From Escherichia phage slur02, in sequence record NC_028927.1: a DNA stretch of 64,000 nucleotides; one strand, written 5' to 3'. A model generated the notes under the pieces. It did no database searches and was not told the origin of the DNA. It saw nothing but the letters and a program-made list of their open reading frames with translations. A program made the translations under genes and the position numbers. The number at the start of each line of letters is the position of its first letter. The first letter of the stretch is position 1. Shown one piece after another: positions 24,230-34,658 of this stretch.

Positions 24230-24811
24230 CTAACCGAGCTTTTTAGTTAATTCATTCCAATGTTTTCTACACAAAGAAACATAAATTTCATCACCAATAC
24301 AGATTTGATTACCTTCTTTAACTGGTGTTCCATCTTCCATTAATCGAGCTGTCATAATCGCTTTTTTACCACAATGACAAACTGCTTTTAATTCAATAAG
24401 TTTATCTGCAATCGCTAAAAGTTCTTTAGAACCTTCAAATAATTTTCCAGCGAAATCAGTCCTTAATCCATAAGCCATAACAGGAACATTATATGTATCA
24501 ACAATTCGGCTCAATTGATGCACTTGTTCAGTTTTTAAAAACTGAGCTTCATCTACAAATACGCAATGAATATCTTTTTGTGCTTCAGCCCATTTATAGA
24601 ACTCGAAAATATCCATATCATCTGTAATAATATTCGCTTCCTGTTTAATTCCAATGCGAGAAACAACTTCACAGACAGAATCGCGAGTATCAATAGCAGG
24701 CTTAAGAACTAATACACTCATTCCACGTTCTTTATAATTATGTGCAGCAGTCAAAAGAGAAGCAGATTTTCCAGCATTCATTGCTGCATAAGTAAAAATT
24801 AAACTCGCCAT
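24230..24811 (-). CDS. tk: Thymidine kinase
   Basis: 193 aa; P-loop AAMNAGKS; Cys-rich C-terminus. Confidence 0.9.
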   Translation of the reverse strand: MASLIFTYAAMNAGKSASLLTAAHNYKERGMSVLVLKPAIDTRDSVCEVVSRIGIKQEANIITDDMDIFEFYKWAEAQKDIHCVFVDEAQFLKTEQVHQLSRIVDTYNVPVMAYGLRTDFAGKLFEGSKELLAIADKLIELKAVCHCGKKAIMTARLMEDGTPVKEGNQICIGDEIYVSLCRKHWNELTKKLG

Positions 24812-29494: not shown

Positions 29495-29572
29495 TACCCA
29501 TTACCGCGCTTTGGCTCGACCTTATCACAGGTTGGCGGGAATACCTCAAATGAGGTCCAGGCTGTTCCCATA

Positions 29573-30046
29573 TTATTTGAACGATTTAACGTACTGAATA
29601 GAACCTTTACTATTTACAAAGGCAATTTTACCATTTTTATTATACATGGTAGCAGTACGTTGATAACCATAAGTTTGTTTACCAGATTGATAACCAACTA
29701 ATGCGAAATTATCTTCGCCCATTTTATTCTGTTTAGCGCGAATGCGTTCATGACCATGTGCCATAAGAACCTTAGCATCACCGGTTGCAATGGATCGACG
29801 AGTTTTTTCATCTTCAACTGTATTAACAAAGTCGTCAAATGAATCAAATTTAGCATGAGATTTATTATACAGTTTTCCATCTACTGCATAATTATATCCC
29901 TGTACATCCATCTCAACTTCTGTACCATCATCCAATACAGCAGTGATTTTTTGACCTTTTTTAAATTTCAAAAGATCAGTAAAAGATTCAGCAATAATTT
30001 GAGAATTAATAGCTGCTTCAGTGATAAATTCTTGATATGTTTTCAT
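29573..30046 (-). CDS. Internal-protein-like capsid protein
   Basis: 157 aa; N-terminal MKTYQEFITEA resembles the T-even capsid targeting sequence cleaved by prohead protease. Confidence 0.6.
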   Translation of the reverse strand: MKTYQEFITEAAINSQIIAESFTDLLKFKKGQKITAVLDDGTEVEMDVQGYNYAVDGKLYNKSHAKFDSFDDFVNTVEDEKTRRSIATGDAKVLMAHGHERIRAKQNKMGEDNFALVGYQSGKQTYGYQRTATMYNKNGKIAFVNSKGSIQYVKSFK

Positions 30047-30062
30047 ATGATTCCTTTAATTT

Positions 30063-30380
30063 TTATTCTTTAGGAAAATTTTTAGAATATGCGTCGTAAA
30101 GCTTATTTCCAATACGACGAAAAACTCTAGCTGCAAAACGATTTTCTGGGTTTTTAATCATAATTTGCATCATATAAGTACCCGCGTCTGAAAGAGCTTC
30201 TTCATAGTACCCGTTAATTTCTTTAAGAGTCCTACGTTTACCACCAGGACCATCAACAGTGATTTTCCATTTACCTGTAGAAGTGCGACTCGGCGGCTCA
30301 ACTTGTTCAATCCAAATATAACCGCCTTCTACACGTTGTCCTGCAGCAGATTCTGCAATAAATTCTTGATATGTTTTCAT
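30063..30380 (-). CDS. Internal-protein-like capsid protein
   Basis: 105 aa; N-terminal MKTYQEFIAESA; basic. Confidence 0.6.
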   Translation of the reverse strand: MKTYQEFIAESAAGQRVEGGYIWIEQVEPPSRTSTGKWKITVDGPGGKRRTLKEINGYYEEALSDAGTYMMQIMIKNPENRFAARVFRRIGNKLYDAYSKNFPKE

Positions 30381-30865: not shown

Positions 30866-31834
<969 letters not shown>

Positions 31835-31853
<19 letters not shown>

Positions 31854-32323
31854 TCAGTGATAAAGCTATTTAAATTTTGGGTATATTTCTTTTCATCAAA
31901 AATCTTTTGTTGTCTGCGTAAACGCCATGGCATTTCAATGAACGTGTACCATATCCCAGATAATATTGCTGCTGTAAAAATATTAACAAGTATGGTTAAA
32001 ATAATCCAATCTCCCGTTCTGTCTACTGGACTTTCTCCAAAGAAGCAAAATACAAATGATGTCACAGGAAAACTAATAATGTACCACAGAATCATAATTT
32101 TATCTGTGAACCAATCAGCATTTGTTAACTTAGCACGACCATTATGAATACACACGAATTTATCATCTGTTATAATAGATGGCTTAGCTGCTTGATATCC
32201 CATTCTAAACTCCCTAATCAACAAATTTTTCATATCTTCGGAACAACCATTCCAGTCAACTCTATTAACTGAAATGCCATCATCCCCATCATCTAAATCA
32301 TACCAGCGAGTTTTTAAAATCAT
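31835..32323 (-). CDS. Hypothetical membrane protein (paralog family)
   Basis: 162 aa; two hydrophobic helices; C-terminal ITECRKLK. Confidence 0.5.
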
Positions 32324-32682
32324 TTAATTTTCCTACAATCACTCACAAACTCTTCCATTGATTCTTTTTCAATATAAGACATGTAGCTATTATATTCCTT
32401 TAATTGTATTTTGTAATCCTTTTTTCTTTGCCAATTTATTTTAAAATTATCATAATGAAAATATAACATGGTACCAAAGAATGAAAATAATGAAATAATT
32501 TTAGTATAGTGAAGTTCACTCCAAACTTCTATTATATTTACTGTGCCGTCAATGTTTAAAATAAGACAGTCAATTAACAATCCAAAAAGACTACCCGCAA
32601 GAGCTGCAGCCAACGCTACAGCAAAAATTAAAAATGACTCAGGAAGAGAATATTTGACTTTATTTAGTTTTGGCTTTTGCAT
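32320..32682 (-). CDS. Hypothetical membrane protein (paralog family)
   Basis: 120 aa; two hydrophobic helices; C-terminal VSDCRKIK. Confidence 0.5.
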   Translation of the reverse strand: MQKPKLNKVKYSLPESFLIFAVALAAALAGSLFGLLIDCLILNIDGTVNIIEVWSELHYTKIISLFSFFGTMLYFHYDNFKINWQRKKDYKIQLKEYNSYMSYIEKESMEEFVSDCRKIK

Positions 32683-33077
32683 CGTGATTCCTTAACAAAT
32701 TTCATAATTTCATCAAATTCATGCGCAGCAAGTTTAAGCTGATGTTCCTTTTTAATCTTTTTACACTGAGCTTTCCAATCACGTACACGTTTACGATAGT
32801 GTCTTCCTTGATACCAGTATCCTATCCAATTTATAGGTACTAATAAAAGCGGAACTACCAATGGAAGAATTAGTGTTGCTCCAAATATTGCACCAGATTC
32901 AATATCAGTCATAACGTCTATAACTATTCCAGCAATCAGCAGAATCACAAATGATACGGCTACCACAGGACCTATTAACACATCAGTAGAAATTATCTGA
33001 CGCTTTAATTCATACTTCAACGGTTTACTTGGAAGGTATAGTGATGGCTTTGACATATTCTCTACATTCCTTAACAA
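32664..33077 (-). CDS. Hypothetical membrane protein (paralog family)
   Basis: 137 aa; two hydrophobic helices; C-terminal VKESRCKSQN. Confidence 0.5.
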   Translation of the reverse strand: MLRNVENMSKPSLYLPSKPLKYELKRQIISTDVLIGPVVAVSFVILLIAGIVIDVMTDIESGAIFGATLILPLVVPLLLVPINWIGYWYQGRHYRKRVRDWKAQCKKIKKEHQLKLAAHEFDEIMKFVKESRCKSQN

Positions 33078-33630
33078 ATTTTTCTAATAATAAATCGCTT
33101 TCAAAATTGGGATTTTCTACGAATTTATCAAAAAGATCATCAACAATAGTTAAGATATTCTTTTTACTAAGAATACGTTTATTTTCATGCTTCGTTTCAG
33201 AATCAACTATAAGAGTAAAGAAATATTTCTTGCCCTGAAATTTTACAGTAGTATCAATATAGAATAAATTTGACTTTTGTAAATTACGTTTAAACCATGC
33301 ATCACTTAAACTATAAACACCAAGATAATCATAATCGTCGTTTAAATAACATACTGTCCATTCAGGAGAAATGAAATCAGTAAATTCAACATCAAAATCA
33401 CATGTTAATGAATGAATTGATTCAATACTGTTAATAAGTATTCCAGGACGTATTAAAGACTTTTTACCTTTATAAAATCCAGAAAGACTTTCATCAGTTT
33501 CATATGAAGAACCCCAATAATAATTACGTCCTTCTGCCATACGTTTAAGAGCATTTAATAATTGGTCTGGAACATCAACCTGTCTTTGGAACTCTTCAAA
33601 CATTGAATTGAAATCACTTTGCATTTTCAT
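33025..33630 (-). CDS. Hypothetical protein
   Basis: ORF track 201 aa. Confidence 0.5.
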   Translation of the reverse strand: MKMQSDFNSMFEEFQRQVDVPDQLLNALKRMAEGRNYYWGSSYETDESLSGFYKGKKSLIRPGILINSIESIHSLTCDFDVEFTDFISPEWTVCYLNDDYDYLGVYSLSDAWFKRNLQKSNLFYIDTTVKFQGKKYFFTLIVDSETKHENKRILSKKNILTIVDDLFDKFVENPNFESDLLLEKFVKECREYVKAITIPSK

Positions 33631-33650
33631 TCCTACTTACTCCAAGTAAT

Positions 33651-33667
33651 AGGGGCCGAAGCCCCTT
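33651..33667 (-). terminator. Intergenic hairpin
   Basis: AGGGGC-CGAA-GCCCCT between 33672-34265 and 33025-33630; weak U-run. Confidence 0.35.
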
Positions 33668-33671
33668 ATCA

Positions 33672-34265
33672 TTATTTCAGAGAATTAATGTATTCCTGAA
33701 CATCGGCAGAGGTAGTTTCAACCCCAGAAATATTGCCATTAAAGGTTTCAACTCGAGCAAGAGTATCTTCAATATCAACCTTAGTCAGTGCTGCAATTTC
33801 AACTACATCATCAGCAGTACTAATTCCAAGGGCATTTGCTGCACGAGTTTCACGGATATATTCCAATTTAACTGCAAGTTCTTGGCGAGCATCATCCAAT
33901 TCAACTACTTTCTTGGCGATTTCAATTCGCATTTCAGCATAACCATCAGCTTTAGTAGTCAACTGTTCAGCTGTTCGACGATATAGCAAGCCGAGTTTAG
34001 CATGCATTGTTACATCTTGACCTTCAGAAAGAAGCTTGCGAATTTCACGCTCTTTTGATTCGGCCTGTCGATTCTTTTCGACAATAAGTTCACGAATACG
34101 TTTTTCTTCATTAATAGATTTAACAGAAGCAGTTTTTAGATCTTTAATCTTATCAAGTAGTTTTGCTGCCGCAGCAGTATACTGTTCTTCAACAGATAGA
34201 TTTTTAGCCATAGCAGAACCAAGTTTAGTGCGAATAAACTCAACAATTTTCTTCAGTGTGTTCAT
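33672..34265 (-). CDS. Hypothetical coiled-coil protein
   Basis: 197 aa; extended heptad-like charged segments. Confidence 0.55.
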
Positions 34266-34322
34266 AGTATTTCCTTAGGTTGGTATAATTAGATAATATC
34301 ACGTTTCTAATAGATTGTAAAC

Positions 34323-34658
34323 TTATTCTTCGTCTAGCTCGTCGATAAAGGCGTCGATGGCCTCGACAACGGCATCATTGATAGCCAATAAAATAAAATC
34401 ATCGTCAGTACCTTTAGAAGATTTTAAAGCATTGATATATGCTTGGTTGGCGAGTTCCCAAGCCTTTTTAAAATAAGGAGCTTCATCATCGGGGCCAACG
34501 AAACGTACGCCTTCAAAGATACGGTTAGCATAATCCAATACCCACTGTACAGGCATGTTTTGAGAACGTTCGTTAAACTCTTTAAATTCCTTAGATTCAA
34601 AAAGCTCTTCAGGATAATCATTTCTATTACAAAAAGCTTTACTAAAGTTACGTTTCAT
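34323..34658 (-). CDS. Hypothetical acidic protein
   Basis: 111 aa; early promoter at 34685-34713. Confidence 0.5.
   Translation of the reverse strand: MKRNFSKAFCNRNDYPEELFESKEFKEFNERSQNMPVQWVLDYANRIFEGVRFVGPDDEAPYFKKAWELANQAYINALKSSKGTDDDFILLAINDAVVEAIDAFIDELDEE

Follow-up and report, generated by a model that had tools for sequence, protein, structure and literature searches.

What unites three adjacent genes for small membrane proteins that lie shortly upstream of the lysozyme gene in T4-like phages, and what might their products do? The question arises at positions 31,835 to 33,077 of Escherichia phage slur02 (sequence record NC_028927.1), of which a stretch of 64,000 nucleotides (nt), hereafter the window, was analysed. 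A reading of the sequence alone had pointed here to three consecutive overlapping open reading frames (ORFs) of 162, 120 and 137 amino acids (aa), each with two hydrophobic helices and a similar charged C-terminal tail. The window is Tequatrovirus DNA: over 31300-33700 it is 100% identical at the DNA level to the Escherichia phages slur04, slur11 and teqsoen, and megablast matches of at least 80% identity were found in 512 phage records. The three minus-strand ORFs are the T4 genes e.2 (31835..32323), e.3 (32320..32682) and e.4 (32664..33056), catalogued long ago and uncharacterised. Each combines a full-length match to a PHROG profile (e.2, phrog_2203, E 2e-78; e.3, phrog_2330, E 2e-60; e.4, phrog_2604, E 1e-69) with a position between e.5 and nudE, in agreement with public annotations, and homologues at least 81% identical belong to the Pfam families PF26896 Phage_T4_Y06M (e.2) and PF26873 Phage_T4_Y06O (e.4). 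The T4 orthologues (Y06M/Y06N/Y06O_BPT4; e.4 86% and e.3 88% identical) bear names to which no function is attached, and we found no function assigned in the literature to e.2-e.6, which T4 omics and screening papers mention in their supplements alone. We find that the feature common to these proteins is a short C-terminal peptide, also carried by a soluble neighbour, and propose that it may serve as a docking site.

The shared peptide, termed the box, reads hydrophobic-[E/N/D]-x-F-[I/V]-x-x-C-[R/K] and lies at the C-terminus of e.2, e.3 and the soluble e.5, while e.4 carries the variant F-V-K-E-S-R-C. On the minus strand, e.2 ends in FITECRKLK (box FITECR, 31847..31864), e.3 in EEFVSDCRKIK (FVSDCR, 32332..32349), e.4 in KFVKESRCKSQN (FVKESRC, 32679..32699) and e.5 in ...EKFVKECREYVK... 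(FVKECR, 33061..33078). A search of all six frames of the window with [FILVMWY][IVLM]x[ED]C[RK] returned three matches, located 3-11 residues from the C-ends of e.2, e.3 and e.5. The same pattern occurs four times in the whole T4 genome, in e.2, e.3, e.5 and one antisense frame, with approximately 0.2 matches expected near C-termini. The similarity of the tails is therefore real and not a product of chance, with e.4 sharing it in variant form. When e.5 sequences from six genera are aligned, only seven columns are invariant, and four of these are the F, C, R and E of the motif.

The distribution of the box was surveyed in e.6-anchored IMG/VR loci (34 fetched, with 54-100% e.6 identity; 33 analysed), using a relaxed form, [FWYLM][IVL]xxC[RK], within the final 22 residues of same-strand genes. 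Of the 407 genes that lie between e.6 and lysozyme, 118 carried it, as opposed to none of the 515 others on the strand. The consensus of 94 distinct tails has a hydrophobic residue at -3 (89%), E/N/D at -2, F (95%), I/V (95%), two variable positions, C and R (89%), with 0-15 residues C-terminal to the box. Without their tails, the carriers sort into 21 groups that BLAST does not connect: soluble proteins of the e.5-like kind, a number of small soluble families, and membrane proteins with one or two helices, which make up approximately 14 of the groups. In another 26 membrane proteins, the e.4 lineage included, a variant box has V/I/M/S in place of C. The membrane proteins that bear either form number between 1 and 5 per phage, with up to 4 of them consecutive. 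As far as we could find, a C-terminal box shared in this manner, and confined to one genomic interval across genera, has not been described.

Some other tails in these loci and in the window were noted. A 101-aa two-helix Mosigvirus protein of the RB69 ORF133c type (locus L018, 10352-10657), encoded apart from e.3 and e.4, ends in ...LENFIKECRGK and is another hairpin with the box. The sole other match to the relaxed box in the window, ...YVSLCRKHW... of the thymidine kinase gene tk (24230-24811, minus strand), is a chance match. The product of e.7 (34323-34658, minus strand) ends in ...AIDAFIDELDEE, which is box-like (hydrophobic-x-x-F-I-x-E) without the Cys-Arg. In loci of Mosigvirus/Dhakavirus type (L003 1746-2541, L004 1034-2073 and many of L017-L046), three to six consecutive soluble ORFs of 65-101 aa lie between e.3 and e.2 and end W-[V/F/Y]-x-S-S-x-x-C (GAWVSSSALC, GGWVASSHTC, QGWVSSSYSC). 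They make up a second family in tandem, likewise marked by a common C-terminal motif.

Helices and topology were assigned from Kyte-Doolittle hydropathy and from counts of lysine plus arginine (K+R). Both e.2 and e.4 contain two segments with a mean Kyte-Doolittle value of 1.9-2.7 (19-residue window peak 2.1-2.9): residues 76-96 (32036..32098, mean 2.0, no charged residues) and 106-129 (31937..32008, mean 1.9) in e.2, and residues 26-49 (32910..32981, mean 2.7) and 56-80 (32817..32891, mean 1.9) in e.4. In the 120-aa e.3, residues 17-42 (32557..32634, mean 2.5) form a strong segment; the second segment, KIISLFSFFGTMLYFHY at residues 61-77 (32452..32502, mean 1.0), is weaker here but plainly hydrophobic in the RB69, LQ5 and M719 orthologues. 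Across the three proteins, 3-4 K+R precede helix 1, 0-1 fall in the loop of 6-18 residues and 4-6 follow helix 2. This distribution predicts that both termini lie in the cytoplasm, and e.2, e.3 and e.4 are predicted to be small two-helix inner-membrane hairpins. Hydropathy thus bears out the two helices per ORF seen by the sequence-only reading, with the second of e.3 weak in this phage, and the charge distribution likewise favours membrane proteins. In e.2, the hairpin is preceded by a 75-aa cytoplasmic N-domain and followed by a basic tail of 33 aa; an AlphaFold2 (AF2) model from 19 sequences (predicted local distance difference test score, pLDDT, 51) placed helices at 69-96 and 103-161 and did not resolve the N-domain.

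Natural variation separates the helices from the cytoplasmic ends. Within Tequatrovirus, mean pairwise identity is lowest in the membrane core (77-85%) and highest in the C-tail (93-95%). Mosaic alleles of e.4 (proteins P0183-P0186) have both helices and the loop exchanged, with nearly identical cytoplasmic N- and C-parts. In the viable phage OP555981.1 (L050 3001-3321; protein P0096), e.3 is deleted and an in-frame e.4(1-31)::e.2(88-162) fusion has formed, the joint being a CCTGTG common to helix 1 of both genes, such that the two-helix layout is kept. Because the core varies, is swapped and is fused while the tails are kept, the helices would fit the role of a replaceable anchor, with the cytoplasmic ends as the working part. 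Laboratory T4 has a shortened e.2 of 102 aa (L005 2860-3168; L010 17631-17939), the remainder of which is a 63-aa ORF still ending in the box; e.2 of the slur02 window is intact.

Published T4 records show e.2, e.3 and e.4 to be early, non-essential genes. The RNAs of e.2-e.6 are early, while at the protein level e.4 and e.5 are detected early, e.2 and e.6 in the middle period and e.3 late (PMC9697503 supplement). In a HIDEN-SEQ screen, transposon insertions were tolerated across e.2-e.8, with 27 of 27 sites hit in e.2, 37 of 37 in e.3 and 42 of 43 in e.4, as against 4 of 45 in the essential e (bioRxiv 10.1101/2025.11.20.689424, supplement 7). CRISPRi-ART guides directed against e.2-e.6 were scored 'Not Fit', with no fitness effect (PMC11879866, supplement 25).

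The triplet had also been read as the outcome of local duplication and divergence, a reading supported for e.3 and e.4 but not for e.2. BLASTP among the three proteins aligned the termini only (e.2/e.3 tails, E 0.007). Profiles built from Tequatrovirus alone (effective number of sequences, Neff, 1.2) were too shallow and again matched only the termini; cross-genus family alignments (window, T4, RB69, LQ5, M719 and Kpn6N) were therefore needed. With these, hhalign matched e.3 to e.4 (Prob 96%, P 4e-9) along 59 columns that begin at helix 2 and run to the C-terminus. The match persisted with strict orthologues alone (P 7e-5) and after removal of the tail box (P 6.6e-6, 46 columns), and reversed and 30 column-shuffled controls scored at most 19.7, compared with 55 for the real pair. 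A hidden Markov model (HMM) of e.4 run against 1410 T4 six-frame ORFs ranked e.3 second (E 0.007). An exact 16-nt direct repeat (AAATTTGTTAAGGAAT, coding strand) is common to the e.4/e.3 junction (32687..32702) and the e.5/e.4 junction (33066..33081), and the gene starts that follow it are alike (ATG-TCAAAGCCA and ATG-CAAAAGCCA), the N-termini of e.3 and e.4 sharing M-x-K-P-x-L. As the profile match survives loss of the box, and given the shared repeat and similar starts, e.3 and e.4 are at the profile level diverged tandem paralogues. The match of e.2 to e.3 (P 4.6e-6 over 26 columns) disappeared once the box was removed (P 0.06), leaving e.2 unsupported as an e.3 duplicate; e.2 has a different body and an additional 75-residue N-domain. 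Since the non-membrane e.5 has the same box, the shared tail is no evidence of gene duplication. An exhaustive HMMER search with the e.3 profile recovered a tiny family of five clusters, all e.3 orthologues, with no link to e.4 or e.2. A merged e.3 and e.4 MAFFT alignment had misaligned tails and was not used as a search profile.

Our preferred reading is that the hairpins are membrane anchors that present a C-terminal docking peptide to a common partner, with e.6 the favoured candidate; we put the probability of this reading at roughly one half. The hairpin would be a mere membrane anchor and the cytoplasmic tail the working part, with the box acting as a short docking peptide for a single partner. 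Early in infection, the e.2, e.3 and e.4 proteins might then keep this partner at the inner membrane, or vie for it with soluble carriers such as e.5. The candidate e.6 (33672..34265, minus strand) encodes a conserved coiled-coil protein of 197 aa at the head of the cluster. With 1105 phage records containing it, this gene is more widespread than any other in the cluster. In an Aeromonas phage, e.6 is followed by a 289-aa box-bearing e.5-like protein ending ...LFIDYCRR.... A single-sequence AF2 model of e.6 (pLDDT 74, above 90 for approximately residues 40-120) forms a long helical hairpin. A Foldseek search of the PDB with this model returned Vipp1 for each of the top nine hits, over the full length and with E down to 2e-4, and in BFVD a phage protein annotated PspA/IM30 ranked ninth.

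If the partner is indeed a PspA/Vipp1-like protein, as the e.6 model suggests, the hairpins may act in the manner of the PspB, PspC or LiaI anchors, in a phage-made module that, speculatively, protects or reshapes the membrane. As with PspB/PspC, LiaI and PspM, these are small membrane proteins with cytoplasmic helical tails, and their genes lie directly downstream of that for a protein whose model is PspA/Vipp1-like; LiaI is itself a two-helix hairpin. However, there is no clearly significant sequence similarity, and the Psp and Lia proteins have no counterpart of the C-terminal box. The more specific proposal, that T4-like phages encode a Psp-like module of their own in which e.6 is of PspA/Vipp1/ESCRT-III type and e.2-e.5 and the other carriers are adaptors recruiting or regulating it via the box, appears unlikely to us.

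A number of points weigh against the docking reading and its Psp-like extension. The T4 transposon and CRISPRi screens show no phenotype for e.2-e.4, and the transmembrane topology derives from hydropathy. The likeness of e.6 to PspA/Vipp1 comes from one AF2 model, built on a single sequence, whose coiled-coil hairpin is of a generic kind, and sequence searches with e.6 (Pfam, PDB and others) gave no PspA/Vipp1 match. RB43-type phages possess an e.6 homologue with no adjoining box proteins, ruling out strict co-occurrence of e.6 and the box. Comparison of the e.4 family with E. coli PspB gave P 4.7e-4 (Prob 32%) over 37 columns spanning the helix and juxtamembrane region, slightly better than the P 0.0018 reached by the null set, and we treat this similarity as about noise-level; other comparisons of e.2-e.4 with PspB, PspC and PspD were not significant. 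In addition, the box coincides with the ribosome-binding site (RBS) of the downstream gene, and AGR makes up 52% of its Arg codons as against 16%, a three-fold enrichment. Given this overlap and enrichment, part of the box conservation lies at the RNA level.

It is conceivable, then, that the tail has no protein function at all and is a by-product of the RBS and start-codon constraint at gene junctions, or a DNA linker for cassette shuffling, on proteins that are otherwise unrelated accessories. The box is always located just 5' of the next start codon, the commonest spacing from the F codon to the ATG being 20 nt (F-I-x-x-C-R-K plus an ATGA overlap), and its AAG-GAA, GAG-GAA or AGG-AAA codons supply the RBS of the next gene. 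The AGG-AAA codons of the e.2 and e.3 boxes thus form the RBS of nudE and e.2, respectively, the AAG-GAA of the e.4 box that of e.3, whose start codon is held in CGA-TGC, and the e.5 box lies just 5' of the e.4 start. Neighbouring genes overlap by 32 nt (e.5/e.4), 19 nt (e.4/e.3), 4 nt (e.3/e.2, ATGA) and 4 nt (e.2/nudE). Because the box overlies the RBS and start codon of the next gene, the run e.5-e.4-e.3-e.2-nudE is by its layout set up for translational coupling. The exact 16-nt repeat at two junctions, the range of 1 to 5 box-bearing hairpin genes by genus and the natural e.4::e.2 fusion would equally suit a DNA-level explanation. Such a constraint, however, leaves unexplained why the box occurs at 3 tightly coupled T4 junctions and is lacking at about 148 others, as it is in the 515 other genes of the 33 loci. 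The F, I/V and C codons are not purine-rich, and synonymous sites vary roughly as background: Cys is encoded by TGT (59) or TGC (48), Ile codons match background, Phe leans mildly toward TTT (71% versus 55%), and Arg uses all six codons, moving between the CGN and AGR families. The e.5-like gene of LQ5 has 17 nt separating its box from the RBS downstream. An overlapping out-of-frame ATG (NNA-TGY) does not account for the Cys either, as the residue preceding the Cys is highly variable. Because synonymous codons vary freely, codon usage shows selection to act on the box peptide, and a tail devoid of protein function is distinctly unlikely. At this locus, the same nucleotides clearly encode a peptide motif and signal the initiation of translation.

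Two further explanations grant the proteins a function of another kind. The sequence-only reading had suggested superinfection exclusion or lysis timing, in which case the hairpins would have the membrane as their site of action, as does T4 Imm or a class II holin/antiholin beside the lysozyme gene. These are indeed small, early, two-helix membrane proteins with a basic cytoplasmic C-tail, encoded two genes upstream of e; early expression suits exclusion, dispensability suits an accessory role, and an arms race could explain why the membrane core varies. Imm (83 aa, two transmembrane helices) is similarly early, small, dispensable and located in the inner membrane, and comes from the same phage group, while class II holins and pinholins such as S21 of phage 21 share the two transmembrane helices, cytoplasmic ends and charged C-tail (a topology that is predicted for e.2-e.4) and a gene near the endolysin. 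Yet 48 hhalign comparisons against Imm, Imm.1, Sp, rI, rIII, T and Ac gave a best P of 0.0018. For Imm the Prob was 0.2-5% (best P 0.007; hmmsearch against the imm ORF, E 3 or worse), and it was below 1% for Spackle (Sp), where the periplasmic loop of just 6-18 residues is a further obstacle, as well as for holin T and the antiholins rI and rIII. No holin family was matched, T4 relies on holin T for lysis, and e.2-e.4 had no match in a Pfam set that was without PF26896 and PF26873. It is the cytoplasmic tail that is conserved, not the helices or the loop, and soluble proteins bear the same tail, whereas Imm has neither a long conserved cytoplasmic tail nor a box. Transcripts are early rather than late with the endolysin (PMC9697503 supplement), insertions in e.2-e.4 are tolerated, these genes being dispensable for plaque formation and e essential, and T4 itself has a shortened e.2. 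The suggested role therefore found no support, and we consider it improbable.

The box might alternatively be a signal of the capsid-targeting type, kin to the N-terminal MKTYQEFIAE, that ties these proteins to the membrane-bound prohead core or to the site of the gp21 protease (I-x-E). T4 prohead assembly begins on the inner membrane, and the two motifs share a core, [hydrophobic]-[E/N/D/Q]-x-F-I-x-E, in adjacent genes: of six matches to [LIFVMY][ENDQ]xF[IV]xE in the T4 genome, five fall within the 4.7 kb from ipII to e.7 (IPII, IPIII, e.2, e.5 and e.7), and the window has two internal-head-protein genes starting MKTYQEFI[TA]E (29572-30046 and 30063-30380, minus strand) in the variable region adjacent to the hairpin genes. 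A short conserved terminal peptide on unrelated bodies is also a feature of the gp45-clamp-binding C-tails of gp43, gp55 and gp33. The box differs from the targeting sequence in being C-terminal and in its defining C-R dipeptide, and it lacks a clamp-binding consensus. The E required for I-x-E cleavage is in place in just 39% of boxes, and e.2-e.5 share with the targeting sequence no more than the F-I-x-E core, lacking the N-terminal MKTYQEFIAE that precedes gp21 cleavage after I-x-E. The e.4 and e.5 proteins are early and the internal proteins late (PMC9697503 supplement), and the resemblance was noticed post hoc. We regard this explanation as very unlikely; it, the exclusion or lysis role and the nucleic-acid by-product are each less likely than the docking reading.

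As first described, the triplet is ordinary: its members are known T4 ORFs to which no function is attached. The apparent novelty is a single conserved C-terminal peptide that unites e.2, e.3, e.4 (in variant form) and e.5 and, in other genera, extends to many unrelated small proteins from the same variable region. What were 'hypothetical membrane proteins' thereby become a system open to testing. Should e.6 prove to be the partner and PspA/Vipp1-like, T4 would possess membrane-maintenance machinery of its own, which would bear on how the membrane of infected cells stays energised during injection, abortive-infection attacks and lysis inhibition. A true Psp-like module would, in addition, represent a new system based on a short linear motif, one that came to occupy approximately 20 unrelated bodies in one variable region.

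The gene order e.6-e.5-e.4-e.3-e.2-nudE (e.1)-e (lysozyme) is conserved, being the same in T4, slur04 and NR1. The order, the overlaps and the first two lengths of the ORFs originally listed (31835-32323, 32320-32682 and 32664-33077) stand, and the third requires correction: e.4 almost certainly starts at ATG 33056, giving 130 aa, and not at TTG 33077, which gives 137. Profile phrog_2604 covers residues 8-137 of the TTG-started ORF, two public annotations use ATG 33056, homologues of four genera start MSKP/MS.LYLPS at the equivalent Met, and AAGGAA is found upstream of the ATG with no RBS-like sequence upstream of the TTG. Upstream, e.5 (33025..33630, minus strand; homologue PF26876 Phage_T4_Y06P) encodes the 201-aa soluble protein with the box and is apparently coupled in translation to e.4. 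Downstream, the coupled run closes with the Nudix hydrolase gene nudE (31398..31838, minus strand; Pfam NUDIX, E 1.5e-13, and annotations). It has two in-frame ATGs, at 31853 and 31838; the upstream one, annotated in the T4 record (151 aa), sits in the GAA-TGC (Glu-Cys) of the e.2 box without an RBS, and the downstream one, annotated in slur04 (146 aa), is preceded by AGGA.

Searches of e.2-e.6 against Pfam (the same model set as above), NCBIfam, PADLOC and PDB sequences yielded nothing meaningful. Some e.3 and e.4 homologues are named 'sulfurtransferase' by NCBI (e.g. P0002, P0005, P0101 and P0109); as no NCBIfam or Pfam model backs the name, it looks like a propagated misannotation. Likewise, some RAST records name e.6 'host specificity protein' without model-based support. 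A GGGGC-UUCG-GCCCC hairpin (33651-33666, coding strand) separates the stop of e.6 from the start of e.5; it is followed by no T-run and probably serves in mRNA stabilisation or processing, not as a terminator. A promoter-like site (34293-34321, minus strand) lies just 5' of e.6.

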